From the NCBI GenBank assembly GCA_002269645.1, contig NIVC01000440.1, positions 1 to 64,000 on the forward strand: DNA of 64,000 bases, in the 5' to 3' direction. Origin of the DNA: Macrostomum lignano (taxonomy: Eukaryota). Position numbers and translations under genes: made by a program. The notes under the pieces are model-generated. The model searched no databases. It saw only the letters and a list, made by a program, of their open reading frames with translations, and was not told where the DNA came from. Positions 1,144-29,364 of this stretch are shown piece after piece. The first letter of the stretch is position 1; each line of letters opens with the position of its first letter.

Positions 1144-2821
1144 ATGGCATCAGAAAGAATAGAGAAAAATTTTGATCCAAACACAATTGAGGTAAGTGAG
1201 GACTTGGTGTCTATAGCTAGATATCAGCTAGACTTTCTGGAAGCAGTTGACCACAAGCCCATATTGAACAGTGATGCAGTGCTAGACAGGGCGCTACACC
1301 GCTATGAAACCATGTGGCTTCCACTGTTGTGGAGTAATAAGGACAGCTGCGATTGATGAAGCCGCCATTTGATATGGCCTGGATTGCCCACTGCCACCAG
1401 CTGGCTCCCAGGTGCTACAGGAGTGACGTCATCAACCTGATTGGTTAGTCGTGGGTGACAATTTAAGAATCCAACCTGACTAAATCCCTACATTATTTTG
1501 AAAATCGGTGCTGTTAACACATTTTGGTGCCGCAGACAGTCAACTTAGCACCGCAGACACTCATTTTAGCGCCGCAGACTCATTTTAGCGCCGCAGACAC
1601 TCATTTTAGCGCAGCAGACACTCATTTTGGCGCCGCAGACACTCAATTTAGCGCCGCAGACACTCATTTTGGCACCGCAGACACTCATTTTGGCGCCGCA
1701 GACACTCATTTTGGCGCCGCAGACACTCATTTTGGCACCACAGACACTCATTTTGGCACCGCAGACACTCATTTTGGCGCCGCAGACTCATTTTGGCGTC
1801 CTCAAGCAAATGACTGATTTCGATAACGGGTCACAAGAAGGGGCGGGGGGACAAAGCATTGGCATGCCCCGCCCAGCATAACTTTTACTGCTTTTACTGG
1901 GGGACATGTTCCCCCCCCAGGGTGGCGGCGCCCCTGTTTGCTACTATCGAGGGGATAATAGATAGTTACCAAAGTGGCGAATGCACAAACACTGCAGGTG
2001 TAGGGATGAGAGCTGGGTAAGAAAGAAATTCAGGTTAAGTAGCAGCCAATCGAAAGGAAGCTAGAGGTGAGGACAGACTCAAAAAGTAAATTGACAGATA
2101 TCGGAGCACTGATAAAACCAATTCCTGCCACTGCATGCAAACTTCAGGCTTCGTCCCGGACACGCAGTCGCCCACTCCGGACACCGTTTCCGACGAGCTG
2201 AGCCGCAAGCTCTGGTCCAGCGCTCATCCCAGCGAGCCCTTTGACCTGGACTTGACTGCCGTGGCTGCCGCAGCTCCTGTGGATGGCGCTGGCAGCGGCT
2301 TCGCCAAGTCGCGGCTGACCTACGACATCCGCGGCGCAGCGCAGCGACAGCGGGGCTTCTTCTACAATGTGTCCCTGCCGCACTACAGGGACAGCCAGTT
2401 TCTTCAAGCCAGTCTCAGACGGTACAAACAGTTCCTCAGGCTGCAGCAGCTCTGCCCGCAGGTGAGCCGAGTTGGTACAATTCATTAATCCTTGATTAGT
2501 TGATTACCATTAATATTAATACCATGTCCTCTCCCATCTGGCCTCTCCCATCTGGCCTCTCCCCCCTGGCCTCTCCCCTCTGGCCTCTCCCCACTGGCCT
2601 CTCCTTTCTGGCCTCTCCCCTCTGGCCTCTCCCCTCTGGCCTCTGGCCTCTCCCCTCTGGCCTCTCCCCTCTGGCCTCTCCCCTCTGGCCTCTCCCCTCT
2701 GGCCTCTCCCCTCTGGCCTCTCCCCTCTGGCCTCTCCCCTCTGGCCTCTCCCCTCTGGCCTCTCCCCTCTGGCCTCTCCCCACTGACCTCTCCTTTCTGG
2801 CCTCTCCCCTCTGGCCTCTCC

Positions 2822-2896
<75 letters not shown>

Positions 2897-5800
2897 CCCA
2901 TCCGCCTACGCCACTGGGCAGAGTATTCAATGTAGTAAAAATACCAAGCCAGGATATACTTCAGTATCAAAACGCTGCCCAGGAGTTCCTGGTGCCCTGC
3001 TACGACATTGACCTGATGTGGCACTCGCACCAGCTCACTCCCCTGGCGTACGAGCGAGACTGTCTGCGTCTACTCAACCGGGTGCTCAGCCACGATGACA
3101 ATGTTGGCGACCGAAGCGACGGCAGCAGACTGTCCAAGGCGTACGCCAGGACTGCTGAGCTGTGGCTGCAGCACTTTGGCCAGAGCTACGCCAGGAGCGG
3201 GTATTCAAGAAAATTCATTTTTTCTACTCAGTATTTCTTTTTATGTCAATGAGTAGAATCTTTTTGAAAACTCAAAAGTCCCATAATAGTACTTTAAGGT
3301 TTTACGTCTCCTTACACGGAGCACTTCTAAGAGTCGTAGTAACCAGCACTTATTAGCCAACACTTTTTGTCAGCAGCCTATAAGGCTTATTCACACCCAC
3401 CCCATTTCTCTGTCCCCGTTCGTCACCCACCCCATTTCTCTGTCCCCGTTAATCTCCCACCCCATTTCTCTGCCCCGTTCGTCACCCACCCCATTTCTCT
3501 GCCCCGTTCGTCACCCACCCCATTTCTCTGCCTCGTTCGTCACCCACCCCATTTCTCTGCCCCTGTTATCGACCACCCACTTTGCCGCCAAATGAGGCAT
3601 CAAATCACCCGACCGATATAAAAATGAATGAAATCTGATGATCACGAATTTTGGCCCTAGTTAATGTTGATATGAAGTAGTAACCTTTAGTAGTATTGTT
3701 CCAAAGTCAGTACCAACTAGTTTTTTATATATTCTAAAGAGTTACGTTTTCTTAATCCAAATCTCTAATTACCTCCAAAGCTATCGGCAAATCTTCAGTT
3801 ACGAGTAGATTTCTGACGATGAAACCCCATAACAATCCGTGACGCCCTGCAGCTGCATGTACCGCGGCGAGTCCCCAGCTGGCAGGCTGTCCAAGTTCAA
3901 CCTCAGCTGCCTCCATTCGGGCTGCCAGCGACGCTACCAACTCAGCCTGACCCGCATGGAGCTGACTGCGCCTCCAACTATCGACCGTTACAAAGTGGTC
4001 CTGCTGGCGCCCAAACTGCCGCCTTGCAAGCCTGGTAAGAGGAGACGTCTGGTCGCCATGACGCAGGCTCAGGGAACTGTCGTTGAGTCTCCCGTAACCG
4101 TCTTTGATTACCTTGTTAACGGCGATGGCGACCAGCCTCTGCTGCTAGAGCTGATTGACAAGCGAAAGAGCTCGACTGGATTGTGCGGCTGCGGCGGTAC
4201 TATGCTTGGCAATTGCAAGGTGAATGCATTGGTTGCAATTTTGTATACAGCTTGAATAAGATGCGAATGTCTAATTCTAGCATTGCACTGATAGTTCCGT
4301 AGAACTCTGAAGTTGTGTTAAGGCTAGCTGGAAAATAGTATCGGTCTTGGTCTATGTCAAGTTTGATCATACTCGTACTTTTGGACACTCACAGCAGGTG
4401 TTGAAACTCAAACAGTAAACCAATTCCTCACCGCAGGTCGCTGTATCGGACAGCATAAAGCAGTTGCCTCCCACCGAGCCAGTTTATAAGCTGGTCTGCG
4501 ACGCTTCGTTTTCTTACGAAGCTCCAAACTACGGTATCAGCAACTTTGCGGCTGAGCTGACCTTCTCGTCAAATGTGCCTTGTATTTTCGATTGTAATTT
4601 GCGTCTTGTTCCGGGCGACTGGGTTGTTGCGATTATGCCGACGGATGTGCCCAGCCTTTGGGGGCCTGTGCCGCTGGGTCAAGTGCCCCAAGGTCAGGAG
4701 CATCGTTGCATTGTGGCGTCGCACAGGTAATAATAGATCTGTAGTTTTAGCATATGTCCAATCGAAGAAGTCATTGGTATGTGCTGTAACAATCTACTCA
4801 TTCTCTTCCAGCCTAGTCACGGAGAGCTCGCAGTTGGTTTTCACAGTTCGAGTGATTCATTCGCAACAACTGGGCCAGTCGGTAGTGCAAGTGTTCAACG
4901 GTGACAGCATGGTAACCGTAGCTTACATGATTGGCGTTGACCAGTTGCCCACGCCGTCTCAGGTGAGTCTTCAACAAACTATTATTTCTCTTGTTTAGTC
5001 GATGCAGATTCTTAGTAGGCTACGCAAAAATTCCAGGTTTCCATTAAAACCACGCTCGAATTTTAGTGTACTTGACTAGCGTTCGCCCCCTCCAGGGGTG
5101 CTGCTTTGAAAAGGATCAATGATCACTTTATTGATTTGCCATCTGAATTTTTCTAGTGCACAAATGTAATAGTGTCCTAGCTTTGATTTTTGGCATCCTT
5201 ACTATGGACCTGCGTTGCCAAATGTCATCAACGTTCTCCAGACGAATGTTACTTACGATAAACTTGAAACGAAAACACTGGTCAGGATTTACGAGGGGAT
5301 TGCTGAGATGTCAATATTCTTGACGGGGAGGAATGGCCGAGACGTCAAGGTTGATATGTCAGACGCTACACATGTATAGTTTATTCAAAAAAATTCATTA
5401 AATTCTTCGCTGGCTCTCTAACGGGGGGGCGCTGATTGCTATTGTGTTTCTAGAAGTAGTGTGGAGTTCCTAAAATCGTTCGCGCTGATAATTTGCATCT
5501 TGAATTTTATTTTGGCATCAAGTATTTAGGCCCACTACGCGAACACAACACAGTGTCAATGTCAACCAAATTTGAAGTTGAGAAACGTCTCTTCTGGTGA
5601 AATTGCATATATGGCCTTTTTCATTTTGTTTAAACTCTTTTCAGATCACTACAGCTAAGCGCGGCCCGCCCAGCCTCAATCCGGGCGTCAGGCAGCGCGC
5701 CTTCATCATCAAAGATGCCGCCGGAGACTGGGGTCTGTTGCTAGGCAACTGGACTGGCCGACGTCGCGGTGTTCCGGCGACGCCCATGACGCCACCCATT

Positions 5801-6892
5801 CGAGGAAGTCCGGGCTACCTAGACCTGATTCTGCACAACCTGTCGCCTGATACATCAGGTAACACCAGTCACAGGATGCGTCTGCCAAACTCGGACAGCT
5901 CAGACCAGCACGTGTTTGACTTAGGCGGTATCTACGTTGACCTCAGCAGAGGCAGCGCCTGCATCGATGCTCAGTGCCGCTCCGCACCTCAGCTAGTTGC
6001 GGCGGCGTTCTGTGCAGCAACTCTAGAGGCCATGTGTCAGCCGCTGCCACCAGCCGCAGCCACAGCCACTGGTCAGTTGGCCGACAGTGTCGATTGCCAG
6101 AACTCTCAGGTAGCCAACGCCGCTCAGAATCTTGGCGAGAAGATTCGTGTAATCGGCTCACCGAAGCTTCAATCGTTGGTGACGCACCCGACAACAACTG
6201 TGACCCGAGGCCGAGCCACCGTGCGTCGGGTTGACCCGTACTCGGTAGCTTTCTGCCAGGCTACAGGTGTGCTCTACCTGGACTGGATGCCGCTCCGGTG
6301 GCACTGGCACTGCGGCCACTGGTGGCAGAGGGCTCGGCAAGGCAGCGGCAGCAGCGGCGGCAGCGGCCACAGTTTCGGCTGCGAAGCTGACGCCGTCGGT
6401 CTAGCAACAATTGTTGCTACTGGCGGCTTCGACGATCTTCAACAATCTGTTGAAGAGTGCGGCGGTGGACTGGACGCCGTCACTGGCGAGGTGACTTTCG
6501 ATGACGAAGTCGGGATTGGAAACGACTGCTTTGACGCCAGCGGCGGTTGCGGCAGCGGTGATGATACTGGCTTTGACGCCGGCGGCTGCGGTGGTTGCGG
6601 CGGCGGCTTCGGCGGCTTCAGTGGCTTTAGCGGCGGTGATGATACTGGCTTTGACGCCGGCGGCGGCTTCGGCGGCGGCGGCGATGATACTGGCTTTGAC
6701 GCCGGCGGCTGCTTCGGCGGCGGCGGCGATGATACTGGCTTTGACGCCGGCGGCTGCGTCGGTGGAGGCGGGACATGCGCCGGCGGCGGAGATGGCGGCG
6801 GTGGCGGCTGCGGAGGAGGCGGTTGCGGAGGAGGCGGTTGCGGAGGAGGTGGTTGCGGAGGAGGCGGTTGCGGAGGCGGTTGCGGAGGCTGA
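1144..6892 (+). CDS. GRDP: Glycine-rich domain-containing protein (GRDP/DUF1399 family), 7 exons, with a 1-nt frameshift in exon 1
   Basis: Exons 1144-1443, 2148-2461, 2983-3200, 3853-4219, 4437-4726, 4812-4962, 5645-6892, with GT/AG ends and consistent phases. Family motifs: LHRYETMWLPLL, KPPFDMAWIAHCHQL (shifted frame), FLVPCYDIDLMWHSHQL, GCMYRG, LPTPSQ, AFIIKDAAGDWG, terminal GGCGGG repeats. Confidence 0.85.
1524..1797. repeat. 21-bp minisatellite (GGCGCCGCAGACACTCATTTT) in GRDP intron 1
   Basis: About 12 tandem units read directly; explains spurious ORFs 1524/1566/1627. Confidence 0.95.
2529..2897. repeat. TGGCCTC/TGGCCTCTCCCCTC compound minisatellite in GRDP intron 2
   Basis: Tandem 7- and 14-bp units between donor 2462 and acceptor 2982. 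Confidence 0.95.
3394..3575. repeat. About 29-bp degenerate minisatellite (CACCCACCCCATTTCTCTG...) in GRDP intron 3
   Basis: About 6 units visible. Confidence 0.85.
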
Positions 6893-10005: not shown

Positions 10006-10999
10006 TGTAACGTTTGGTCTCTGATTCGTCTCGAGGTGGCCTGGCAGGTCTTTGTATCCCACCGCTGCCACCAGTGAAGTACTTCTCCTTCTCGGGTTCT
10101 CGAAGATGTTCCTAGCAAATAGAACCCGCTGCTCCTGAAGAAGCTAGATAGCACCGCAGTACTACCTATCGATTTGCCTGAAAATGAACCTAAAACGTTG
10201 GCCTTGACTTGGTAGGGTTGCTGCCACCTTGGTGTGCGGACTCGACGTGTCGGCAGAGTTGTCTATCCGTCACCTGAAATAAAATTAACGAAGACACTCG
10301 TAGCAAAGGCCAAATCTGAAAATGTCTCAACAGTCGATTGTCTTAGTTGAATGCTACTCAGACCTGAAAACCTGTAAAACCTGAAATGAGAGAGGAGAGC
10401 TCGGAGGCAGAGGCTTCACGAGTTAGCCATAATGCTCCGCGAGACGACGCAGTCTACGACACGGTCTGGAGAAAATTGGCTCGCAGATGCTCCGTATTTA
10501 TAGACGAGCGGACCCCCAAAAGTCACGTGAGTTTCATGCGGTGAGCGCGTGAAACTTCCTTATTTGGGCATTGGAATCATGCGAACGACGCGTGATCCAA
10601 GGCCAACTTCCAAATAAGGCAACCCTGTCACGCAGCAGTGGCGTGACTCAAGGTCAGCGGCCACGCACAGAGTGCGTGCACAGTCACGTGCTTAGTCTGT
10701 GCTAAAAATAGAATCGTGGGCGGATGAGTCATCCTGTTTACTCCCTCTAGGCAGCCCTTACACTCCGCGCAGGTGATGAGTCATCCTGCTACGCCTCCTC
10801 AGCGCGAGTGGGAAGACATTGAGTGTGGCTGCCCGCGCCCGCTCAGGCGATGAGTCATCGGGCAGTAAACACTTAGGCCCAGCACAGGGTAACTCTCTCA
10901 CTCGCTCAGGTGGACTGAGATACTGTGCAGCGGATCACAGCACTCTTAAGGAAAGCTAGTGAATGCTGCTGAATAGCCAGATAGCAGCCAGTCACTACA
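10006..10999 (-). repeat. 3' LTR (994 bp)
   Basis: Starts TGTAACG, ends CACTACA; 10510-10999 is identical to 19610-20099 (offset 9100). Confidence 0.95.
10496..10857 (-). promoter_or_regulatory. LTR U3 promoter/enhancer: TATA box, 2 ETS+CArG composites, 4 AP-1 sites, 2 CACGTG E-boxes (copy in the 5' LTR at +9100)
   Basis: TATAAAT (minus) 10496-10502; CCTTATTTGG 10558-10567 and CCAAATAAGG 10610-10619, each overlapping ACTTCC; TGA(C/G)TCA at 10644, 10725, 10777, 10851; CACGTG at 10524, 10685. Motif matches only; function not shown. Confidence 0.65.
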
Positions 11000-11521
11000 C
11001 TCTCCCCGTCCAAATTAAATTGCAGCAGCGGAACGATGATACAATTTTATTTGAAAAACAAAACGGCTCTAACAAGGCCACTGAAGTATTTATTGCTACT
11101 AAAGAAGAAAATCAATGCGCGCCAGTCAAAAAGATGGTGTACCACTGCGAAAAGGCAACGTGAACTACATGTCATATTAATTGCGGAATAAAATGTTGAT
11201 TACATGAGACAGTTTTTAGATTAGACTGCATAGTTGTAATGATGAGAGATATTTTAATTTTGAGATTTTTGAAAGAAAGATTTCCTGATTATTGATTAAT
11301 AGATTATTTAATAAAGTATAAATGTTGTCATGTAATTTAAAATTTTGTCGCATATAAACTACAGATGATGTCAACAGTTTAACTTGTTTGATGGTGTTTT
11401 TAATGAAAAATATTGATTTGAGCAAAAGTGACTTTGAGTAATAATAGAGCCAACCTTGAGCTCGCGGAAATAACTTTCACGAAATAACGGGTTGATGAAT
11501 TATTGGCCAAAATGGCTGAAG

Positions 11522-12634
11522 TCAAAAACGAACGAACTTATTAAAACCGGCCGGCACGTCAGCGGCGAGGCCTAAAAAGAACAGTAGTTTCAATATGGCC
11601 AGTTCTAACGATGAAGCGTGCGGCGGATGAGGCGGGAGAGCAGCGGCCGTTCGACGGGCGACCTCCTTTATGGCCCGCTGCCTCTCGTCCGGTGAGGCGG
11701 CTCGGAAATCCGCTCTGATTCCTTCTGGCCAACTTCGGCAGAGCTGCCCCTTTTGTCCGGCTGATACTAGGAGCTCAGTGAGGATGATGATGGCCTTCTC
11801 GGTGATGGAGCTCGGGCGATCGCTCTGAGTTTCTGCATCCACTAGCTGCGGTCGAGCCCGGATAGCAGCGCTAATCGCCTCCGCGAGTTCGGTCCGGCTG
11901 AATAGGCGGGGCGGCGACGGCACCGGTGACGGTCGGCGAAATCGAGGGGACGACGGCGTGGGCGGCGTTGGGACCTCGTCCAGATTGACAACGTCGGGTT
12001 GGGGCGGTGGTGTCAATACACCTAAATAGTGCCCTGGCGGTGGCGAGGATGACCGAGGCGGCGTGTGCAGCACATCCTCCCTTGGATTAAGAAGAGCCGG
12101 CGGATGCTCATTCGGCGAGACCTGCTCTCCCACGATGTCCTGGATAGGAGGCAGCAGGTCTTCACCGGACTCTTCCTGCAGGGAGCTACTCAGGCTGCCA
12201 AGCAAGTTGAGCAGTTCTCCGTCAGGCGCCTGAGCCTCACCCGATTGCTGCGGATTGGGAGTGCCTTGCACTGGCCGGCTGGGCGCTCCGCCCTGATGGT
12301 CGGCGGTAGCTGGAAGTCGGGCATCGAATGAATTAGCTAGGGCCGGATTTAATCTACGGCGAATGACCTCCGCCCTCTCGTTGGCAACCGCGAGACGATC
12401 CTCCAGCGATGAGGGCTGCAGCGGAGCGAGTCGGCGTACTTCGATCCGAGGCTCCTGTCTGCGCTGATCGTCCCAACGACTGCGGCGCCTATGCGTCGTG
12501 TCCTGGGCCGGCGTCGGTAGGGCTTGCGTTCGGCGAAGCGGCAGGGCAGGCCGCGTGCGCTTCCGGCCACTAGCTGGTGAGGGCGTCCTAGAAGGCTCGC
12601 GGTCGCGCCTCTTCCGGTTTTCTTTGCCCGTCAT
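11522..12634 (-). CDS. Gypsy ORF3, 370 aa, unknown accessory protein (basic/Pro-rich, not env-like)
   Basis: Uninterrupted ATG-initiated ORF between the pol stop and the PPT, same strand as gag/pol; no signal peptide or furin/fusion-peptide pattern visible. Confidence 0.75.
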   Translation of the reverse strand: MTGKENRKRRDREPSRTPSPASGRKRTRPALPLRRTQALPTPAQDTTHRRRSRWDDQRRQEPRIEVRRLAPLQPSSLEDRLAVANERAEVIRRRLNPALANSFDARLPATADHQGGAPSRPVQGTPNPQQSGEAQAPDGELLNLLGSLSSSLQEESGEDLLPPIQDIVGEQVSPNEHPPALLNPREDVLHTPPRSSSPPPGHYLGVLTPPPQPDVVNLDEVPTPPTPSSPRFRRPSPVPSPPRLFSRTELAEAISAAIRARPQLVDAETQSDRPSSITEKAIIILTELLVSAGQKGQLCRSWPEGIRADFRAASPDERQRAIKEVARRTAAALPPHPPHASSLELAILKLLFFLGLAADVPAGFNKFVRF

Positions 12635-12638
12635 GCTT

Positions 12639-15600
12639 TTAATGTTGCTTTACAGCGCTGGAACAGGCACGAGGCCGGCGGAAAAAGTTGATTAACCGGC
12701 TCAAGTAGGACTTTGACTTTGGTTTAAGAACCAAGCGGTCAGGTTCCCTTCGAGCCCTAACTGGCCTGTCATTGACGGCCCATTCGACTTGACTAGTTGA
12801 TGGCAAATTGGCCGACAAAACATGACTATTATTTGGCAAATTGGCCGACATAACATGACTATTACATTGATTATTCCTATCAGAGTCTAGGTTAATCCTA
12901 TCGCTAATTTCAATTTCAGGTCGCCTCTGCGTTTCAGCTGTAGGAGCGGATGGAGCGTCGCAAGAATCATACGGCAGTGACTCAAGCTCAACTCTATTCT
13001 CCATAACTTCAGGTTCCTGGATGCGGACTTCGGTTGGACGCGCGCCTGGCTGAGCAGCTGATCGGAGTCGCCAGCGATAGGCGGGTCTCGTGTCCAGGTC
13101 ATCTTCTTCGTCAGAGTCCTCAGAGATGGCGGGGAGTGTCGCAGCTCCGGCGTCAACCTGTCGAACTCGGCGTTGCTTCTTCGGTTCGGCTGGCCCTTCG
13201 AGATCTGCAATTGGATAATCTGAAGTGGGCACAAGGAGGAGGTTCCGGCGATGAACTACCATCTCGTCCGGTCGTTCTCGAGGGTGTCGAACCTTCCGTC
13301 GAATCTTGTAGACGACTTCTCCTTTGCTTTCCACCACTTCATACAACGATCTCCTTGGCCTGTGGAACTTCACTGCTTCGTCTTCGTGTAGGACCGGATT
13401 GTTCAAGAAGACGAGATCTCCCGGCTGTAGCTTCTTAGCTGCTGGTCGGTTCTCGTAGTATTCGTCTCGCGCTTGCTGATGCAGGCCTAGCCGTTCCTTG
13501 GCGAGGTCCGTGGCGTGCTTGAGGCGTTGCTGAAACTCTGCGACGTAATCAGGCAGGTTGGCATACTCCGGGAGTAGCTTCAATGAGTTGTCGAGAGGCA
13601 TCCTGTATTCTCGGCCATAGACTAAGAAGTAAGGCGTATAGCCTGTGACTGGATGAACGCTGGATCGAAGAGCAATCATGCACGCTGGCAGAAATGTGTC
13701 CCAATCGCGGTGATCGTGCTCAAGGAGACATGTCAGAATGCTCTTGATCTGCTTGTTCAGATTTTCTACCAGTCCGTTGGATGCTGGGTTGTACGGCGTC
13801 ATTGTCGTGTGCCTGATAGCGTAGAGATCACAGAACTTCTTGAAGGCGTTTCCTGTAAAGTTCGTGCCTTGGTCCGTGTGAATCCAAGCTGGAACTCCGT
13901 ATTCTGGAATAAATCGGTCCTGAAGTAATCGGATAACGGTTTTAGCTTTCTGATTTCTCATCGGATAAGCTATCGAAAACTTTGATGTCGCACAGCAAAG
14001 TGTCAGGATGTATCGATGACCTCCTTTGGACGGTTGCGCAATCGGTCCGATCACATCCATGTGAAGTCTTCCAAATACTTCGCAGACTGGAAAACTCTGT
14101 ACTGGCACTTGCTGTTTTCGTCGTGACTTGCTCTCTAGGCAGGTTCGGCATTTGCTGACGTAGGTCTCAATGGCTCGGACTAGACCTGTTCGCCAGAATC
14201 TTTCGCGCACACGTTGGGCGGTCTTACGCTGTCCTTGGTGTCCTGCTAAAGGCGAATTGTGGAGCTCGTTAAAAACTTCGTCGTCGAGAGCTACTGGTAA
14301 GACAATCTTCGGTGGTGTCTTTTTCCGTCAAGTTGATCATGAGTAGATCTCGCTCGAGGAATAGTAACTCGTAGTATCCAAGCAGATTCCGTTGCTCTCT
14401 GCTAAGTCGTAATCGATCGTCAAACGCTAGTTTCGGTTGATTCTCCTTGATCAACTTGTAAACGTAGCCAATAGCTGGGTCATCCTGTTGAGCTTTGATG
14501 AGCTTGTCGCGCGGCAATGGCGGATTCAGATGATCCGTAAGCAATGCTCGGCAGCGCGGCAGACTTTGAGAAGTTGCGAGCTGGGGAGATGCTTCAGCTG
14601 TACGTACTCTGTTCTCCTCGTATGCAGACTTCGTCACCTCTGCATAGGAACGCGTCAGTTTCGGCGTAGGACGAAGGCGCGTCATGGCGCAAGACATATC
14701 GTCCACGCGTTGATAATGGGTGGTCGGCTGCAGGCTCATGGAAGAGCAACGAGACGGCTCGACCTGCTGAGTCTGTCGGCTCATGGAAGAGCAGCGGGAC
14801 TCCTCAGCGGTAAATTTTCGACCGAGATCTGAGCAGTGGCGCTCGACTGGGAGGGCTGCTGGAGCGGTGGCCTCCGAATCTTCGTCCAAGTCAGTCTCCA
14901 AACTCTGTAGGTAGACCTGATGGCTGTCGTTGGAGAGGGCTGAGGATACAGTGGCCTCTTGAACTTCATCCAGATTGGTCTCCTTGAAGTGACGGCGAGC
15001 GTGGGTGGCTCGGCAGAGGGCTGCTGGTGCGGTGGCCTCTGTGTCTTCATCCAAGCTTGCTGTCTCCTGGCTTCGACGTGAACAGTGGAGAACTCGGCAG
15101 AGGGCTGCTGGTGCGGTGGCCTCTGGTTCGTTGTCCAAGTCGGTCTCTGCCTCTGGATCGCGATTGTGGGTCTCGGTTGTGAGGGCTGCTGGTGCGGTGG
15201 CCTCTGAATCGATGCCCGGATCAGTTTCCTTAATGCGGCGACACTCACGCTGAGTGGTGGCACCTGTCTCCTCGCGGTGGCAAGCCAGGACAGCGTCGAC
15301 GTCTTGGAGTACTCCGTAATCGCATTCTAACGGAGGCGTGTCCGGGCGTCTTGATAGCGCGTCGGCGTTGGTGTGGTCAGTACCCTTGCGATGGGAGATG
15401 GTGAACTGAAATTCGCTGATCCTCTGGACCCATCGACCTAGAATCCCTGTAGATTCAGTCTGACGTAACAGCCAGAGCAAGGCCTTATGGTCACTTCTTA
15501 CTTCAAACTTCTTTCCTATTAAGTATTCTCGAAAGTGTCGCATGGCATCGACGATAGCCAGTAGCTCCCGCTTGGTGACCGTGTAGCGAACTTCCGGGTC

Positions 15601-17762
15601 ACGGAGCTTGCGACTGAAAAAGGCGATCGGTCGTTCTATTCCATCGGATTGTAGTTGTCCTAGACAGGCACCGATTCGGGTGTCGGATGCGTCGGTATCC
15701 AGGATGAACTTGACCTTCGGATCCTCATTGAACTCTGGGAGGGCGAGTACTTCGGTTGAGCATAGCTTGCTCTTCAGAGTCTCAAAGGCAGTCTGATGCT
15801 GCTGCGTCCAATGACGCTGGAATCCTTGCAGGTCCTTACGTGTCAATGCGTGTAACGGGGCCGCGATGCCCGAGTAATCTTCGACGAACTTCTTGTAGTA
15901 ATTGGCGAGACCAAGAAAGCTTCGTGTTGACGAACAGTCCGAGGCGTTGGCCAACTGCGTATCTGCTCAATCTTGTCTTCGCTTGTCCGTAGGCCTTCCG
16001 GCGTAATCACGTGGCCTAGATAGTGGAGCTCCTTCTTAAATAAATGGCATTTCTTCGGCTTTAGCTTCAAGTTGGCGGCTATGATTCGGTTTAGGACTTG
16101 TCGTAGACGGCCTAAGTGATCTTCGAACGTCACTGCGTGTACAACGATGTCGTCCATGTAACCAAGAGCGGCCTGCGGTGCTAGTCCTTCTAGCAGTTGG
16201 TTGATACAACGCTGGAACGATCCGGGGCTGTCGGTGAGTCCCATTGGTAGCACCTTGAAGCAGAATTGTCCACGATCGAGCACAGAGAAGGCAGTGATGT
16301 CCTGGTCTTCCTCGCGGAGAGGGATCTGGTAGAAGCCTTGTACCAGGTCGAGGCTTGAGTACCACTGCGCTCCTTTGAGTTTGGCGAAAGTTTCCTGAAT
16401 GTGCGGGATCGGGTACGGGTGCTTCAGCGTCACATCGTTGATCGCTCTGAAGTCGTGCACAATGCGAATCGTCTTGTCCTTTTTTGGCACTAGGATCATC
16501 GGCGAATTGTAACTGGAGTACGTTGGCCGAATGATGCCTTTCTTCAGCATATCATCGAGCATCTGATCCAATTGCGGTCGTAGATGCGGAGGTATCCGGC
16601 GAGGAGGAATCGCGATTGGCGTCGAGTCTGTGAGCACTATCTCATGAGTTACCAGGTGAGTCAGTCCGTGGTCCAACGGAGTTAGGGAGAATGCCTTCTC
16701 GCATTCCTTGAGTACTTCTTGAACCTGGTGCTTCTGGTGGCTGTTCAGCTGGTCTCCGATGTCGACCTCGTTGATCCAACTGTCAGTCGTTTCTTCAGTC
16801 GTATTCAGTTGACGGACTTCTGGCTCGTTCGACTCGCTGAAGTACTCGAGGTCCTGGGTCTTGAGTGGCGTGGCTACTCCCAATAGCATGTTGCGACGCA
16901 AGTGAACCTCTGTGTCTGATGGGTTGAGTACTTCCATCACTCCTCGACCTTCTGTCATCGTGTGCAGGACCGGGGCTGCGTCTAACTGGTGATGCTTCGC
17001 TCGCAGTCCTGATTTGAGCGGTTCGATAATCATCGGTGAACCGTAGTTCTGCTGATGACCTTCGGCTAGTTTAATGGCGACGAGGCAGGAACATTGAGGC
17101 GGCAGAGTGCATTTTTCAGCGACGTACACTCGGCAGGCCTTCAGTTCTCTCCTTGAATAGCGTACCGGAAGTCGGGTGCCTTGTCGGAATGTGAGCATTC
17201 CTTGCTGGAAGTCCAGTCCTTGGCAGTGACTCCGCATGAAATCGATTCCTAAAAGATTTTCACAGTCTCCTTCGGCGACGAAGAATTCGGTTTCCGCGAC
17301 ATAGTCCCCGAATTCGATTGATAGGATAACCTTAGCGGCGAGACTTAACTCGGTCCCGTCGTACATAGCGACTCGGTTAGGGTAAGCAGGTGCGACTATA
17401 CAACGTGGTGAACGACGCCTAATGGCGGCCCAAGTGGACGCTCCGAGGAAGTTTCTTCTGCTTCCGCTGTCTAGCAGAAAGGCGACCTCTCGTCGAGCCA
17501 CTCGTCCTGTAATAAATGGGTCGGCGTCACGCGCATGGACAGTATTTACAAAGGAGGCGTCCACGAAACCTCCATCGTCCGTTTCTTCGATTACTGACGA
17601 CTCGGACGAGTCAGCTGCCGCGGCTGCGGGGCCATACTCTTCCGGGGCGTGTTCGTTGTCGGCTGCATAGCCTGGGCTGGAGCTCGGGGGGCGTTGCCGT
17701 TTACGTCCTCCGGCCGGCCGTTTCCCGTAAACTGCTGAGATGATTGGCGTCTGTACGGACAA
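12639..17762 (-). CDS. pol: Gypsy pol (protease, RT, RNase H, integrase), split by two single-base frameshifts (~15928 and ~14320)
   Basis: LDSG protease; LDLVQGFYQI and YMDD RT motifs; DASD, ELLAIV, SDH, ADALSR RNase H; HHCC, MDVIGP, TDQG-35-E integrase. Confidence 0.95.
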
Positions 17763-18769
17763 TCTCTCGCCTTGTGTCCGTCTTGATTACACTCGTAGCA
17801 CGTGTAGTTCGGCGGTCGGTTCGCTTGACCGATCACTTGATTGGCTGTGACTTGCTGAGCCAACGTGTTAAGCAGATGCTGCTGCTGCTGCATCATTGCG
17901 GCTTGTTGCTCAACGACTTTCTCCAACTTCGAGAGGGCGCTGTTGTTGTTCTCCTTCGAGGCTTGTCCCTCCCCGTCCAACATTCTGACCGGGGGCTTTT
18001 TCGAACGATGAGCCAGGTCTTTGGCTAATTCCATCCTCTTCAGTGCTCGCAAGGCTTCGCTGAGTGTCGTAGGTCGGATCCAGAAAAGTTTCTCGCGGCA
18101 GTCTGATGACGTGCGAATCCCGCGCAGGAACTGGTCGATCAGTTCTTGCTCTAGATGGCGAGGCTCGAGCCAAGGGAAGGCTTGCTCTCCTAGCTCCTGC
18201 AGAGCATCGGCGTAATCTTCCGTTGATTCGTTCTTGCGCTGGTTGCGACCTCTGAATTCCTCTCGATATTCGTCTGGTCCTGAGAGTCGTGCGAATCTCT
18301 CTATTAGTCGTTGCTGAAGCTGTCGATAGCTGATGCGGTCGGGCAGCCTCATGCGAAGTACCGCGGCGTAGGCCGAATTTAAGTCTAAATTCGCCAGCAA
18401 TTGGGCCTTCTTGTCGTCTTCATCCTGTAGATCTTCTGCCTCGCATCGTAGGTCGAAAGCCTTTAGCCAAACGCGGATGTCCTGCGATGGCGTGTAGCTC
18501 TTCATCTTGACTTGCTTCTTAGGCTGTAGATCGAGCTGACGTTGCATGGCCTGCAGCATCCTGCGGATCATGTCCGGGTTGGTGTCGCGTCCGAGGTTGT
18601 TGAGTCCTGCAAACGAATCTTCCTCCTCCTCTCTTGAGTCGTCTCTAAAATTAAATCTTAAACCACATGGTATGGGCGAACCTGCAGCAGCTGCGGCGGA
18701 GTTTCCGTTGTCCTGACGCGTGTGCTGCTGATCACCGATGAGATCTTCTCGATCACTGTCGTGAGACAT
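17591..18769 (-). CDS. gag: Gypsy gag with CCHC zinc knuckle
   Basis: 392 aa ORF; QRKNESTEDYADALQEL capsid-like segment, DQFLRGI, CYECNQDGHKARDC; overlaps pol in the -1 frame. Confidence 0.93.
   Translation of the reverse strand: MSHDSDREDLIGDQQHTRQDNGNSAAAAAGSPIPCGLRFNFRDDSREEEEDSFAGLNNLGRDTNPDMIRRMLQAMQRQLDLQPKKQVKMKSYTPSQDIRVWLKAFDLRCEAEDLQDEDDKKAQLLANLDLNSAYAAVLRMRLPDRISYRQLQQRLIERFARLSGPDEYREEFRGRNQRKNESTEDYADALQELGEQAFPWLEPRHLEQELIDQFLRGIRTSSDCREKLFWIRPTTLSEALRALKRMELAKDLAHRSKKPPVRMLDGEGQASKENNNSALSKLEKVVEQQAAMMQQQQHLLNTLAQQVTANQVIGQANRPPNYTCYECNQDGHKARDCPYRRQSSQQFTGNGRPEDVNGNAPRAPAQAMQPTTNTPRKSMAPQPRQLTRPSRQ
17720..17726 (-). other. Candidate -1 ribosomal frameshift site G GGA AAC
   Basis: X XXY YYZ heptamer correctly phased in gag (acG GGA AAC) within the gag/pol overlap. 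Confidence 0.75.
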
Positions 18770-19010
18770 CTTGATGCTGACTTAGTCGTGGTAGGCGTGA
18801 CTGATGACGTGTCCGAAAGGGTGATAGTTGAGTGACGTTGACGTCGATTCGGTGACGTTCTCCTGCTTGCTTGCTGTATCCCGTATCTCGAATCTCGAAT
18901 CCTTTGTCTCGAATCTCGAATCCTTTGTCTCGAATCTCGGATCTCAAATCCTTTGTCTCGAATCTCGAATCTCGAATCTCGAATCTCGAATGTCGTATCC
19001 CGAATCTCGA

Positions 19011-19175
19011 ATCTCACCGCTGTTCCACCAGTGTAACGTTTGGTTGTCTCTGATTCGTCACGAGGTGGCCTGGCAGGTCTTTGTATCCCACCGCTGCCAC
19101 CAGTGAAACGTTTTGGTTGTCTCTGGGTTGTCTCGAGGTGGCCTGGCAGGTCTTAGTATCCCACCGCTGCCACCA
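19011..19175 (-). other. Three tRNA-Leu primer-binding-site-like sequences
   Basis: ATCCCACCGCTGCCACCA (3' 18 nt of metazoan tRNA-Leu(AAG), from recall) at 19085-19102 and 19158-19175; degenerate copy at 19011-19030; another copy at 10056-10073. Confidence 0.85.
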
Positions 19176-20099
19176 GTGAAGTACTTCTCCTTCTCGGGTT
19201 CTCGAAGATGTTCCTAGCAAATAGAACCCGCTGCTCCTGAAGAAGCTAGATAGCACCGCAGTACTACCTATCGATTTGCCTGAAAATGAACCTAAAACGT
19301 TGCCGTTACTTGGTAGGGTTGCTGCCACCTTGGTGTGCGGACTCGACGCGTCGGCAGAGTTGTCTATCCGTCACCTGAAAGAAAATTAACAAAGTCGCTC
19401 GGAGCAAAGGCAAATCTGAAAAATGTCTCGACAGTCGATCGTCTTAGTTGAATGCTGCTCGAACCTGAAACCTGTAAAACCTGAAATGAGAGAGGAGAGC
19501 TCGGAGGCAGAGGCTTCACGAGTTAGCCACAATGCTCCGCGAGACGACGCAGTCTACGACACGGTCTGGAGAAAATTGGCTCGCAGATGCTCCGTATTTA
19601 TAGACGAGGGGACCCCCAAAAGTCACGTGAGTTTCATGCGGTGAGCGCGTGAAACTTCCTTATTTGGGCATTGGAATCATGCGAACGACGCGTGATCCAA
19701 GGCCAACTTCCAAATAAGGCAACCCTGTCACGCAGCAGTGGCGTGACTCAAGGTCAGCGGCCACGCACAGAGTGCGTGCACAGTCACGTGCTTAGTCTGT
19801 GCTAAAAATAGAATCGTGGGCGGATGAGTCATCCTGTTTACTCCCTCTAGGCAGCCCTTACACTCCGCGCAGGTGATGAGTCATCCTGCTACGCCTCCTC
19901 AGCGCGAGTGGGAAGACATTGAGTGTGGCTGCCCGCGCCCGCTCAGGCGATGAGTCATCGGGCAGTAAACACTTAGGCCCAGCACAGGGTAACTCTCTCA
20001 CTCGCTCAGGTGGACTGAGATACTGTGCAGCGGATCACAGCACTCTTAAGGAAAGCTAGTGAATGCTGCTGAATAGCCAGATAGCAGCCAGTCACTACA
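19032..20099 (-). repeat. 5' LTR (996 bp from 19104, or 1068 bp including the extra PBS unit)
   Basis: Direct repeat of 10006-10999; ends CACTACA followed by TSD TAGT. Confidence 0.93.
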
Positions 20100-21337
20100 T
20101 AGTCAAATTTTGGCTATAATGAACAAAGAACAATTGTATAATCTTTTAGCACAATGGTATTAGTCAATATAAATTGGCTTTCCATTTAAATGAGTTTGTT
20201 TGATTTTTTATTTATCTTGTACTTTTAAATGTGCTTTCCAAGAAATGTATATTCATCTAGTCTTATCAATGACTTAATTATTAATTTTAATTAATAATTT
20301 TTAGCTACAAAAAGGAGTTGAATTTTTATTTTTTCTTCTTGCCTACATCCTAAGCCTAATATTTTAAGTGTATCTACTCTACCTATTATAAACTTATAAT
20401 ATAAACTTAATTTTGTACTTCAATAGCCAAAAAATATAAAAAAATTCTACATATACTTTTGTGATGCTAGCTAATATTGGCACCTTGGACACTACTGACA
20501 GTATAGTCTACATCTGTGCCTAAGTCTTGAAATGTATGTTATGACATTGTTTTATCTCTTATGACTCACTCAATTGGATGGCAACATATTTTGTTGTTGT
20601 ATAATAAGAGCCATTGCATGTTACTATGACACTCTTTGCATGCCAGTGGCTTAGGATCTTTTCTTAGTCTAGTTATAATATTAATTTGGAGCTAAATTGG
20701 AAATTTGGAATCTTGGCTTGGATAAGTTGTTATAGACTGGCCATGCAATTAACCATTGTGAACCTATCCCCAAGGCATTGTAAAGTGTACATATTGTATG
20801 TGCTTGTATGTCAACTCAGGAGAATTGGCAAATTGAGCAATGCCTCTTGATAGATGTATGACAATATTGTTTAAAGTATGCCAGGGTGCACACAGTCCTA
20901 TGCCTCTAACTAAAAAACATGCTTATAAGCAAAGCAAGAAGCCCACTATCTCACTGCTAGGGTGAAAAGAGCTTTGAGTTTTGGCTCAAATGCAGCTTAA
21001 TTTCAATATCCAATTCCAGCAAAAAGGCAGGTTTTTTTGTGCCTGCAAAGCAAACTTTTTTTCCTAATTTTACAATAGCAAAACTATTCTCTGATGCCTG
21101 ATCCACCCTGTTATTTCCAAGTTAATTGACCATTTTCTCATTTTCCTGACTAACTGGCTGACTTCAAAGAAGTTGTTATTCCAATGTGGAAAAGTTTTTT
21201 TACAAAAAACAACTTATTAAAGAAAAACTGGTTTTTCTCTTTTCATGCTGTTAATAATATGAATTTTCTAGTTAAATAATAGAAGCCATATCTTAACATT
21301 GCCTACTAGTAGTAGGCTTATCTGGTAAAAATAAAAA

Positions 21338-23300
21338 ATGGTAAACCGGCAATTGCAGGCTGCTACTGCTGACTCCGGGATTCCAGCAGCCGGCGCTGAG
21401 GTTGCGTTTCAATTTTTGCACTCGGAGCTGGTCAGCTTCTTGCTGCGCGAACAGCTGCAGGGTGGCGGCGGAGGTCCCGCCACTGTTCAACAGTGCAGAG
21501 CCCAGCTATCCAAGCTGGAAACCATGGGCTTTCGAGTTGGCCAAGCCTACGTTGAAAAGATGACTAAAGATTTGCCGAGATTTCGAGACGATTTGGAGAT
21601 TGTGAAATTCCTCTGCAAAGATTTCTGGGCCAGTCTGTTTAAAAAGCAGGTGGACAACCTCAAGACTAATCACCAAGGTGTCTATGTGGTTATTGACGAG
21701 AAATTTTCCCTTCTAGTGCCCATGGCCAGAGGTAAGCTGCTAAAAGTGCTATCAATTTAAATTTTGCTTTGGATGTGATCTAGCATTTCCAATCTAACAT
21801 TGTTTTACCTCATGAAGGTTCTCTACGAGCTAACTGAACTGTTTCACTTCGTCCTCATGAAGGTTCTCTACGAGCTAACTGAACTGTTTCATTTCGTCCT
21901 CATGAAGGTTCTCTACGAGCTAACTGAACTGTTTCACTTCGTCCTCATGAAGGTTCTCTACGAGCTAACTGAACTGTTTCACTTCGTCCTCATGAAGGTT
22001 CTCTACGAGCTAACTGAACTGTTTCACTTCGTCCTCATGAAGGTTCTCTACGAGCTAACTGAACTGTTTCACTTCGTCCTCATGAAGGTTCTCTACGAGC
22101 TAACTGAACTGTTTCATTTCGTCCTCATGAAGGTTCTCTACGAGCTAACTGAACTGTTTCACTTCGTCCTCATGAAGGTTCTCTACGAGCTAACTGAACT
22201 GTTTCACTTCGTCCTCATGAAGGTTCTCTACGAGCTAACTGAACTGTTTCACTTCGTCCTCATGAAGGTTCTCTACGAGCTAACTGAACTGTTTCACTTC
22301 GTCCTCATGAAGGTTCTCTACGAGCTAACTGAACTGTTTCACTTCGTCCTCATGAAGGTTCTCTACAAGTTACCAAAACAGAGCCCTATCCCAGATTTTT
22401 TAACCCGAAGGTTCGCCACCTGAATTTTTCACCTTCCCATGAAGGCTCTACCTGAACTGTTTCAGTCTCACGATGACTCACCTCATAAAGGCTCCCTATT
22501 TGGACTGTATCACTTCATAAGGCTCTCTACCTGGGCTGTTCCACTTCATAAAGGCTCCCTACATGGACTGTGCCATTTCATAAAGGCTCCCTACATGGAC
22601 TGTGCCATTTCATAAAGGCTCCCTACTTGGACTGTGCCACTTCATAAAGGCTCCCTACCTGGGCTGTGTCACTTCATAAGGCTCCCTACCTGGGCTGTGC
22701 CACTTCATAAGGCTCCCTACCTGGACTGTGCCACTTCAAAAAAGGCTCCCTACCTGGACTGTGCCACTTCATAAAGGCTCCCTACCTGGGCTTTGCCACT
22801 TCATAAAGGCTCCCTACCTGGACTGTGTCACCTCCTAAAGGCTCCCTACCTGGACTGTGTCACCTCCTAAAGGCTCCCTACCTGGGCTGTGCCACCTCCT
22901 AAAGGCTCCCTACCTGGGCTGTGCCACCTCCTAAAGGCTCCCTACCTGGGCTGTGCCACCTCTTAAAGGCTCCCTACCTGGACTGTGCCACTTCATAAAG
23001 GCTCTCTAACTGAAGTGTTTCACTAAAAGAATTTTTTTCACTGAAACTGTACTTAAATATGTCTTAACATTTTGCAATATTTCAGTTTATCTTACCATGT
23101 TTAATTAACAATAGCATACAAAAATGCATTCTGAAACAGGTAAACAATACCTGGACCGGTGCCACCTGTACACAGCATTTCCCTGCGGTCTGATTCGCGG
23201 TGCCCTCACCAACCTGGGCCTCAGGGCCATTGTCACCGCCGAAGTTGAAGAATTGCCTCGAGTGAAATTTCAAATTCAGCTTGTTCAGCACTCGGCCTGA
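21338..23300 (+). CDS. TRAPPC6: Trafficking protein particle complex subunit 6 (TRAPPC6/Trs33), 2 exons, 184 aa
   Basis: Exons 21338-21731 and 23140-23300; motifs LETMGFRVG, KFLCKDFW, KQVDNLKTNHQGVYV, FPCGLIRGALTNLG. Confidence 0.95.
21806..23000. repeat. 45-bp near-perfect minisatellite (~12 copies) followed by a degenerate ~32-bp array in the TRAPPC6 intron
   Basis: CCTCATGAAGGTTCTCTACGAGCTAACTGAACTGTTTCACTTCGT units to ~22365; AAAGGCTCCCTACCTGGACTGTGCCACTTCAT-like units ~22495-23000. Confidence 0.95.
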
Positions 23301-25557: not shown

Positions 25558-28029
25558 ATGAACTGGTCCAGTCAGCTCTATCGCAAGCTAAACGGCGTCC
25601 TCTGCATTTACAAGCCGCCTCACGTGTCGCCTCGTCAGTGCGTGAACGGCATTGTGCAGCAACTGTGCGACTCGCTTAACGACGGCCCGTTTGAACCAAC
25701 TCGGCCATTTACTGAGGTGCGCCTCTAATACCTTTTAAATATTTCTGGGCCTTTACTATGGGTATATCCCTTTTTTCTCTTCCCTCCCCTCCCCTCTCTC
25801 CCCTCTCTTCCCTCTTCCTTCCCCTTTCTTCCCTCCCCTCTCTTCCCTCCCCTCTCTTCCCTCCCCTTTATTGCCTTCCTTCTCTTCTCTTCCCTCTCCT
25901 CCTCTTTCTTCTCTCCCCTCTCTTCCCTCCCCTCTCTTCCCTCCCCTCTCTTCCCTCCCCTCTCTCCCCCTCTCTTCCCTCCCCTCTCTCCCCCTCTCTT
26001 CCCTCCCCTCTCTTCCCTCCCCTCTCTTCCCTCCCCTCTCTCCCCCTCTCTTCCCTCCCCTCTCTCCCCCTCTCTTCCCTCCCCTCTCTTCCCTCCCCTT
26101 TCTTGCCTTCCCTCTCTTCCCTTCCCTCTCCTCCTCTTTCTTCTCTCCCCTCTCTTCCCTCCCCTCCCTCCCAGGCCCCAAGGCACGGTGTTTACATCCT
26201 GCCTGGCGATCAGACAGTCAGGGCCGCTGTTCGCCCTGGCTGCGTACGCATAAGTGTGCTTGCGCAGGGGTTATCAGGAGGCATAACAGCTTTGCCTTGA
26301 TCCTCACAACTACTTGATCCTCACAATCAATTTACAGAGCTTATTTTCTAATTCAAACTGACATCCGTCTCACCAGGTGATACGTCAACCAGCAGCTATT
26401 GAGCAGCCGTCGCATGGGCAAACTCAAATTGGCTCCCCAGCCTCCCCAGCAGCATCAGTTGAGTCCATCAGCCATCGCCTAGTTGCCAGGCCGGATCTGC
26501 GCAGTCTCAGCCAAGTGGCCGGCCCAGCCTTTGTCCCCGGCTCGAGTTTCCCCTTCACAGTGGCCGACCCGCTGTCCGACTGGTGCTCCGGCGTCCAGCT
26601 GGTCGGTCTCGGCCGTCGCGGCATCATCGCCTGCGAGCTTCTTGAGCGTCAGCGCCTATTGAAAGTGTACAGAGTCCGCGCTGTGCTGGGCAGGGCTACT
26701 CACGACTGTACGGGTGACGGCACCATCGTGTTGAGAACTACTTGGCGTCACGTGACTCCGGCTATGCTTGAGAGAGTCTGCACCGTGGTCGAGGCCGGCT
26801 ATAAGCGGCAGCTGCTGGTAGGGCACTTCCATCGACTGGTGGTCTATTTCAATAGATTAAGACTAGATTCGAGTAGGTTAAGACTAGATTCGAGTAGATT
26901 GGGACTAGATTCGAGTAGATTGGGACTAGATTCAAGTAGGTTAAGACTAGATTCGAGTAGATTGGGACTAGATTCGAGTAGATTGACTAGATTCGAGTAG
27001 ATTGGGACTAGATTCGAGTAGATTGGGACTAGATTCGAGTAGATTGGGACTAGATTCGAGTAGATTGGGACTAGATTCGAGTAGATTGGGACTAGATTCG
27101 AGTAGATTGGGACTAGATTCGAGTAGATTGACTAGATTCGAGTAGATTGGGACTAGATTCGAGTAGATTGGGACTAGATTCGAGTAGATTGGGACTAGAT
27201 TCGAGTAGATTGGGACTAGATTCGAGTAGATTGACTAGATTCGAGTAGATTGACTAGATTCGAGTAGATTGACTAGATTCGAGTAGATTGGGACTAGATT
27301 CGAGTAGATTGGGACTAGATTCGAGTAGATTGACTAGATTCGAGTAGATTGGGACTAGATTCGAGTAGATTGGGACTAGATTCGAGTAGATTGGGACTAG
27401 ATTCGAGTAGATTGGGACTAGATTCAAATTGATTAGGACTAGATTCCTTCTAGTCTCTTAGGTAAAAGCAACCGCAACAATTCCCCTTGCAATTCCCCCC
27501 GTAGGCCGGCCTCCGCAATAATACCCGGGCCGCCTACGCCGCACTGGCAGCCGAAGGCGGCAGCGTTCACCGCGCCGCCCGTCAACACCTGGGCGGTCCC
27601 AGCGTGTACGCAATGCGCCTAGTTGCCTGGGATCCGCCTGGCTTCGAGCTGGAGTTCCACGTGCTGCACGAGACGCCCGGCTTCCTGCTCGAGCTGGTTG
27701 CCGACGTCGGCACCCGAGTGAAATCGTCGGCCTTCTGCGCCAGGATTCGCCGACTAAGGCACGGCCCGTTCAGCGCCGCCAAGCACAGCTTGCTTCCAGA
27801 AGATGTCACCTTGAACTCGGCTATCAGTAACTTGAGCTGGTTGCCAAGGCTGATGCCGAAGCTGGTTGTGGGCGATGAGGAGCTGCCGGAGGCTGTGCTG
27901 ACCGCAGCGGAACCGTTGGACTCTTCGCTGAAGCCGGCGCCGTCAAACAAGAAGCAGCGTCGAAAGAAGAGCCGGGCGGCAGTCGAGTTGAATGAGACAG
28001 CAACTGAAAGCCTGAAGATGAGTGACTGA
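25558..28029 (+). CDS. TRUB2: Mitochondrial TruB-family pseudouridine synthase homologue TRUB2, 3 exons
   Basis: Exons 25558 (or 25537)-25716, 26377-26817, 27505-28029, in phase; LNGVLCIYKPP, GPAF, LKVYRVRAVLGRATHD, TTWRHVT, PPGFELEFHVLHET, RIRRLRHGPF match recalled TRUB2 motifs. Confidence 0.9.
25770..26172. repeat. Pyrimidine-only (CT-rich) repeat in TRUB2 intron 1
   Basis: TCTCTTCCCTCCCC-type units. Confidence 0.95.
26852..27425. repeat. 21-bp minisatellite (ACTAGATTCGAGTAGATTGGG) in TRUB2 intron 2
   Basis: About 27 units, some 19 bp. Confidence 0.95.
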
Positions 28030-29246: not shown

Positions 29247-29364
29247 ATGTGGTTGATGGACATTCAAGAAGTAAATTTTCTCACATATTGCAGCCACTGC
29301 CAAGCTAACGCTACTGAGTAAAAGAGATAAGGAAACCAGGCACTGAAGGACAAACTTTATCAGC

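Follow-up and report, generated by a model that had tools for sequence, protein, structure and literature searches.

A non-env accessory protein on a divergent 3' cassette of a Ty3/gypsy retrotransposon in Macrostomum lignano

The host element and its third open reading frame

The window analysed here is a stretch of 64,000 nucleotides from Macrostomum lignano (contig NIVC01000440.1), and all features of the element described below lie on its minus strand. A 370-codon third open reading frame (ORF3), which an earlier note on this DNA had called, was confirmed at 12634..11522. Pfam domains and LTR structure placed ORF3 in a Ty3/gypsy LTR retrotransposon of about 10.1 kb, with TG..CA LTRs, a TSD (ACTA, 4 bp), a polypurine tract (PPT), and gag followed by pol in the order PR-RT-RH-IN by Pfam. 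The 5' LTR (19032..20099) carries a TATA box, six acceptor-like TT(T/A)CAG sites and two internal PBS-like repeats, and is followed by a PBS-like sequence at 19011..19030, which we take to be of the tRNA-Leu type, by gag (17591..18781; Retrotrans_gag and zf-CCHC in Pfam) and by pol (12639..17786), which is spread over three frames with breaks near 15925 and 14314. Downstream of ORF3, the polypurine tract and 3' LTR occupy 10006..11013 (LTR 10999..10006), and the two LTRs of the window copy are 97.7% identical to each other. Neither AATAAA nor ATTAAA was found in the LTR, and the only two AATAAA signals in the element are at 11094 and 11051.

Some further observations were made on this layout. 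The six acceptor-like sites lie 3' of the LTR TATA box (window 19280-19481, and again at 10178-10381). The PBS-like units (TGGTGGCAGCGGTGGGAT) stand in tandem inside the LTR end (19030-19175, and 10073), two in the 5' LTR in addition to the PBS and one in the 3' LTR, and the 12-mer core of the unit occurs 2,021 times in the genome against 64 for a control. Within pol, between RNase H and integrase (14700-15250), lies a long imperfect-repeat insert of xEATAPAAL units, which is common to the sister families. A contig of sequencing run X9 joins both flanks at window 10001/20100 (an empty site), and thus the insertion is missing from some homologous copies. What we take to be host exons lie elsewhere in the window among simple repeats, at 2090-6892, 21335-22640, 27505-28029 and 29347-29718, and presumably resemble a Gly-rich-domain protein, TRAPPC6, a TruB-type pseudouridine synthase and DGCR8.

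The earlier note had considered it telling that ORF3 is intact beside a broken pol. This argument carries no weight, since two breaks placed randomly in gag, pol and ORF3 would spare ORF3 with P=0.72; selection is instead shown by dN/dS. Stops are present in seven of the 12 longest matches among the 69 obtained by searching the genome with ORF3. The pol breaks themselves are private to the window copy or its assembly, as pol is a single frame of 1716-1717 aa in two other copies (C19 and C722), and at both breaks the contigs of all four sequencing runs examined show an indel relative to the window. Between the window ORF3 and the open-frame ORF3s of C19 and C722, protein identity is 64-67%, with dS of 1.6-1.7, dN of 0.24-0.27 and dN/dS of 0.15-0.17 by the Nei-Gojobori method, the ORF3 dS values being rough with synonymous sites near saturation, while gag and pol of the same copies gave dS of 0.04-0.08. 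A dN/dS of about 0.15, the comparison across copies that the earlier note had proposed, indicates purifying selection rather than neutral evolution. ORF3 is a coding gene under purifying selection. Positive selection was rejected, dN being far below dS throughout, and so was recent hypermutation, as copies that carry the same allele have ORF3s 97-99% identical over their length.

ORF3 gave no match in Pfam, the protein and its domain alignment gave none in a word-indexed protein search, none came from the ESM Atlas or PDB sequences, and an exact look-up of ORF3 alleles in the protein collection returned none of ten. A profile search of 1.84 billion representatives yielded eight matches at E<=0.001, five of which belong to the family: three proteins named as hypothetical proteins of M. 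lignano, an unnamed fusion with pol, and an unnamed Logan protein; the remaining three look like repeat-driven noise. The Logan protein, P0005, is 43% identical to the C-terminal half of ORF3 and at most 45% identical to anything in the genome; it retains the SIM-like and LC8-like motifs described below, and thus the ORF3 family exists in another lineage. Foldseek with the C-terminal domain, as the earlier note had suggested, produced no match at E<=0.001 in the pdb or viral sets, and a VIA fold search gave none at Z>=8, the best Z of 6.1 being ordinary for helical bundles. The C-terminal domain is thus without a sequence or fold match in these searches, an absence that does not prove a new fold. 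The match to a known env or ORF family that could have undone the earlier reading appeared in none of the Pfam, PDB-sequence, profile or fold searches. No description of ORF3 or its cassette was found in our literature searches; the main text of PMC12801592 does not contain 'ORF', and its supplements and one 2020 classification paper may bear on novelty. ORF3 represents a real, selected and apparently undescribed family of non-env accessory proteins.

The position of ORF3 is that of env, and a single hydrophobic 19-mer (aa 345-363) has a borderline hydropathy of 1.82. A reading of ORF3 as degenerate env or as a neutral remnant is nevertheless highly improbable, and largely refuted by its dN/dS of about 0.15 over saturated dS. 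In the model the hydrophobic stretch is a helix of a soluble-looking bundle, and it is more polar in relatives, the best 19-aa hydropathy of sister C-terminal domains being only 0.5-1.6. The earlier note was also right that ORF3 lacks the signal peptide and TM architecture of env: the N-terminus is basic and polar with no hydrophobic stretch, and the protein is Pro/Arg-rich and disordered, with one Cys.

A divergent cassette on a near-identical backbone

What the earlier reading overlooked is that ORF3 belongs to a deeply polymorphic cassette, bounded by an acceptor and a poly(A) signal, and that its SIM-like, LC8-like and helical features are widely shared. The cassette consists of ORF3 and the 3' UTR (11046..11521), which vary together; its alleles differ by 30–40% in DNA, with ORF3 dS of 1–2, near saturation, on backbones (gag/pol/LTR) that are mostly 95–99% identical. 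Against five copies aligned end to end, the element of the window is about 90-99% identical over its length, save that in three of them (C19, C722 and C206) one 1.5-kb block, ORF3 plus 3' UTR, is only 57-74% identical. Among eight copies with all parts, identity is 90-98% for integrase tails and 87-98% for U3, against 57-80% for ORF3 between alleles. The variable block starts at the pol stop, just past TTCCAG (12658), and ends at AATAAA (11094/11051). Its 5' edge is marked by a predicted 3' splice or SL trans-splice acceptor (TTAAT, pyrimidine tract and TTCCAG; 12658..12695), 23 nt 5' of the ORF3 ATG, and its 3' edge by the two AATAAA signals, 95 and 52 nt 5' of the LTR. A contig of run X2 departs from the window at 12639 into another ORF3 allele. 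In the mosaic copies C19 and C722 a crossover lies within ORF3, and thus exchange does not always involve the whole cassette. Some older copies have integrase tails of 73-89% identity and are possible cassette donors.

The same arrangement was seen in sister families, of which 60 stretches were fetched and 55 parsed. Weak matches to the C-terminal domain sit downstream of sister integrases of 73-78% identity, and an ORF3 counterpart stands behind a conserved pol-tail motif in sister loci, being missing in 15 of the 55. This pol-tail peptide (PxRL..xPxxKxY, then an amphipathic stretch; window 12685-12745) lies directly ahead of the acceptor, and the PxRL..xPxxKxY peptide is kept in all families, down to integrase identities as low as 56%. 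The families of 68-78% identity have ORF3 in frame with pol, and those of 56-61% have it as a separate frame. As no stop intervenes between pol and ORF3 in the former (L076, L077, L079-L082, L090 and others), the in-frame ORF3 could also be an integrase C-terminal extension. Sister pairs with integrase DNA 96-99% identical have ORF3 proteins only 44-67% identical, and in nine of nine pairs ORF3 dS ranges from 0.9 to saturated against 0.01-0.19 for integrase, with ORF3 dN far below dS. In all 25 distinct contexts the ATG has a YAG acceptor 6-30 nt upstream. AATAAA occurs 48-61 nt before the LTR in all 39 sister loci with a located PPT (it was not located in the other 16 of the 55 parsed) and in six of six family copies, and identity returns to 98-100% at AATAAA in four of four comparable pairs.

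The 15 ORF3-less loci of the 55 parsed (L099-L102, L104, L106, L109-L115, L120 and L123) form a young subfamily (mean 97% identical) that has no acceptor and keeps the AATAAA; eight of the 15 have an open integrase frame. As such young copies are common, ORF3 is dispensable in cis, and acts in trans or is optional. One sister 3' UTR contains two occurrences of a TTTAGGCGC...GGCGCCCCC motif (L107:2780-3450, L100:1600-1750), which may be a hairpin and survives in the ORF3-less copies.

Several public M. lignano hypothetical proteins with PAA accessions are identical to ORFs of sister elements. PAA55839.1, annotated as 'partial', is the ORF3 of L090 and begins at the first whole codon past the acceptor, even though 551 open codons precede that start in the genomic frame; a gene model that starts exactly at the acceptor points to SL trans-splicing in this sister family. 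PAA48053.1 begins at the ATG and PAA74962.1 one codon past it, not at the acceptor. One RNA-based annotation is described as trimming gene ends at SL trans-splice and poly(A) signals (PMC5730564), and the PAA accessions, judging by their names, probably derive from that annotation. The ORF3 mRNA is thus probably SL trans-spliced, the gene-model evidence concerning sister families. Contigs of the four sequencing runs contained no splice joint to ORF3, though such contigs do not report on expression.

Both cassette edges agree with a recapture of ORF3 mRNA through template switching; backbone sweeps with ordinary recombination and rare-allele selection may be an alternative. Another explanation for the many alleles is that ORF3 and its UTR act as a self-recognition or copy-number module, whereby an allele would restrict or license no elements other than those with its cognate cassette, and many old alleles would thereby be kept on one backbone. 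The 29 copies readable at the ULM-consensus motif described below (rows with an identical 1.2-kb context being dropped) fall into at least 17 clusters when their N-terminal sequences are grouped at 88% identity, ORF3 and UTR covary, and sister backbones have the same pattern, all of which would suit such a module. As dN is far below dS, with no positive selection, and mosaic alleles exist, we consider it quite unlikely.

Motifs and domains of the ORF3 protein

The first 270 residues of ORF3 are mostly disordered, and the full-length AF2 model is poor (pLDDT 45). The helical C-terminal domain that the earlier note anticipated was borne out as a four-helix domain common to the clade (aa ~279-370; 11525..11800), AF2 modelling of the last ~95 aa from a 19-sequence alignment giving four helices with pLDDT 88.9 and pTM 0.81. 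Basic NLS-like clusters are present, as noted before, at aa 7-10 (RKRR) and 24-28 (RKRTR; 12551..12616 for both) and are conserved in the alignment. An earlier estimate of about 14 S/T-P sites was exact; at least 14 occur in only 14 of 5,000 shuffles of ORF3, the shuffle mean being 6.9. A candidate Rev-type NES, LLPPIQDIV, was rejected because the final hydrophobic position of what we take to be the NES consensus is missing.

A SIM-like motif (VVNLDE, aa 215-220; 11975..11992) lies within a conserved S/T-P cluster. The predicted core reads VVNLDE, IINLDD or TINLDE in the window's family and exactly VIDLT, the PIAS SIMb core (PMC3901395), in many sister ORF3s. A candidate LC8-type motif, DAETQSD (aa 266-272; 11819..11839), fits the LC8 rules at D-4, T-1, Q0 and D+2 but has Ser at +1, and several sisters have an exact TQT. 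LC8 motifs are described as a T/V/I-Q-T anchor with Asp at -4 and D/E/P at +2 in a disordered setting, with many anchors that do not bind (PMC6607443). Among 20 full-length or C-terminal ORF3 proteins, the SIM-like motif was found in 16 (shuffle expectation 0.07) and the LC8-like motif in 15 (expectation 3.1); the patterns were chosen post hoc and the proteins are related, not independent. As predicted from sequence, the clade-wide features are an Arg-rich patch, the SIM-like and LC8-like motifs and the four-helix C-terminal domain.

That these two motifs are so much commoner than the ULM, which is present in just four of the 20, raises the possibility that ORF3 is an anti-silencing factor, which would use its SIM and LC8 motifs to join or block complexes of co-transcriptional silencing that depend on SUMO and LC8, and whose nucleotide-divergent alleles would persist because their mRNA evades piRNAs directed at common alleles, under negative frequency dependence. 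Near-saturated synonymous sites with a conserved protein, and abundant ORF3-less copies as expected of trans action, are consistent with such a role. To our knowledge, however, Panoramix is specific to flies, piRNA escape should favour divergence of gag and pol too, and the SF3B1-type ULM is left unexplained; we consider an anti-silencing role somewhat unlikely. LC8 is reported to dimerise the fly PICTS silencing complex (PMC7861614), and VANC of VANDAL elements provides a functional precedent, being, like ORF3, a transposon-encoded, fast-evolving accessory that acts in trans (PMC5735166). In contrast to ORF3, VANC is described from plant DNA transposons and acts on DNA methylation, and no homology between the two was found.

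The Arg-rich motif RRRSRWDD (aa 49-56), which the earlier note had read as a ULM consensus, was found at 12490..12467, with W54 at 12473-12475; it has the basic residues, Trp and following Asp/Glu/Asn by which a ULM is defined, with HIV Rev as the viral precedent (PMC6511859). The pattern [RK][RK].[RK]W[DEN] arose in only 12 of 20,000 shuffles of the ORF3 protein, and the region is disordered (AF2 pLDDT below 50 over aa 11-74). The earlier note had held that variation of RSRWD across copies would count against its reading, and here the outcome was mixed. RRSRWD is exact in only 21 of the 29 readable copies, with Trp retained in 24, and in 12 of the N-terminal clusters; all eight departures, five of them losses of W54, are in copies with ORF3 stops, and many copies with exact RRSRWD also carry a broken ORF3. 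In seven chosen diverged alleles (7/7), however, RRSRWD is invariant and makes up six of the 12 invariant columns of a 41-column alignment with variable flanks. It is encoded by varying codons across copies, and the residue after S-R-W-D varies (D/E/A/V/T), as it does between RWDE and RWDV in host ULMs. The host SF3B1 ULMs are RRNRWDE, (K)RRSRWDE and KRGRWDV, the second of them identical to the ORF3 motif over RRSRWD. The motif serine is TCG in SF3B1 and always AGY in ORF3; capture of the motif from host SF3B1 was therefore rejected in favour of convergence.

The ULM is confined to the window's family, with four of the 20 proteins, all of that family, having it and none of the other 16, whose Arg-rich patches lack the Trp. 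As these sister ORF3s have the same acceptor and AATAAA, the ULM is not the core mechanism. The earlier interpretation of ORF3 as a nuclear mimic of a splicing factor is thus upheld as regards a conserved, selected non-env protein with a ULM consensus identical to that of SF3B1, and weakened by the restriction of the ULM to one family. The host genome encodes UHM domains with the RXF motif. One host UHM (L138), which we take to be PUF60/SPF45-like, was co-folded with residues 32-71 of ORF3, each partner entered as a single sequence; the score of 0.18 against a mark of 0.34 is evidence neither way. No SF3B1-type ULM from a retrotransposon was found in our literature search.

ORF3 could alternatively be a nuclear regulator in which RRRRSRWD is an Arg-rich RNA-binding or nuclear/nucleolar localisation motif, its Trp-Asp is retained for some other cause and the ULM match is incidental. 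The sister patches without Trp agree with this, as do many other ORF3 blocks that are equally conserved and the description of Rev residues as serving both RNA binding and import (PMC6511859). The retention of S-R-W-D with a next residue that varies as in host ULMs, and the rarity of the pattern in shuffles, argue against an incidental match, which seems to us quite unlikely.

Possible function and known systems

The interpretation we favour, tentatively and at a little under an even chance, is that ORF3 is a nuclear Rev/CERV-like regulator, carried on an exchangeable cassette with its own mRNA, that shifts element RNA towards the full-length form. By default, cleavage of the transcript at the acceptor and at the poly(A) signal ahead of the PPT would give ORF3 mRNA. 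The protein would then enter the nucleus, dimerise via LC8 and dock on SUMOylated nuclear factors via its SIM; proline-directed kinases may switch it, and its Arg-rich patch may contact RNA. In the window's family, RRSRWD would compete for UHM proteins (U2AF65, PUF60, SPF45 and RBM39), reducing use of the acceptor, and full-length genomic RNA would accumulate. The ULM would thus be a family-specific add-on competing for UHM factors, as in Rev. The cassette would move when reverse transcriptase switches onto co-packaged ORF3 mRNA, and such template switching would explain why the swapped unit is the predicted mRNA. Against this interpretation, a protein that solely blocks its own acceptor gives no net gain.

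The closest functional parallel considered was CERV of Cer1, described as needed for export of genomic RNA and as having an NLS and a proline-directed phosphosite (PMC10309623), in an element whose spliced mRNA, in contrast to its genomic RNA, is reported to be SL1 trans-spliced (PMC3315495). ORF3 and CERV are both non-env accessory proteins of LTR retrotransposons with a processed mRNA (predicted for ORF3), an NLS and a proline-directed site. However, CERV is a protein of 517 aa with three folded domains and exons shared with gag, whereas ORF3 forms one 3' unit and is disordered over most of its length, apart from a four-helix domain. No mention of ULM, UHM or U2AF was found for CERV (PMC10309623), and CERV was not among the profile and fold matches of ORF3. 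HIV-1 Rev likewise has a ULM within an arginine-rich motif, with basic residues, Trp and an acidic residue (PMC6511859), but folds as a small helical hairpin and has both an RRE and an NES that are known, whereas ORF3 has 370 aa, a motif nearer to SF3B1/SF1 (RRSRWD) and additional SIM-like and LC8-like motifs. The N-terminal region of SF3B1 (host copy L051) shares the identical RRSRWD in a TP-rich disordered context; in contrast to ORF3, it has at least three ULMs rather than one, 26 TP rather than seven and a different serine codon family, and the best pairwise blastp E between the two was 0.012. ORF3 also lacks a TP directly after Trp-Asp, which in ULM5 of SF3B1 is reported to raise U2AF2 affinity four-fold (PMC9364107). 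The non-env ORF3s known from LTR retrotransposons of bdelloids and plants are described as family-specific, with GDSL, DEDDy, coiled-coil or TM features (PMC5408684, PMC7264820), while the flatworm ORF3 is one family with many ancient alleles within each near-identical backbone.

Taken more broadly, these elements may be an animal LTR-retrotransposon clade with a swappable, mRNA-sized regulator cassette, a wider reading that we regard as possible but put at below an even chance. SL trans-splicing and internal poly(A) would excise the ORF3 mRNA, reverse transcriptase would recapture it, and frequency-dependent selection would keep dozens of alleles 20-100x older than the backbone; the protein would be a new scaffold mimicking an SF3B1-type ULM, a PIAS-type SIM and an LC8 anchor.

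By what means LTR retrotransposons that lack Rev carry their full-length RNA through the splicing and silencing of the host is an open question, for which CERV is the worked example that our searches found. ORF3 adds an apparently unrelated protein family, in a flatworm amenable to RNAi-type and transgenic tests, and would, should binding be borne out, provide a transposon-encoded SF3B1-type ULM. More unusual still is the allelic cassette, a natural record of strong, long-lived diversification limited to one transposon transcript unit. With it, existing small-RNA and SL-read data can be used to test piRNA escape, self-recognition and mRNA recapture.
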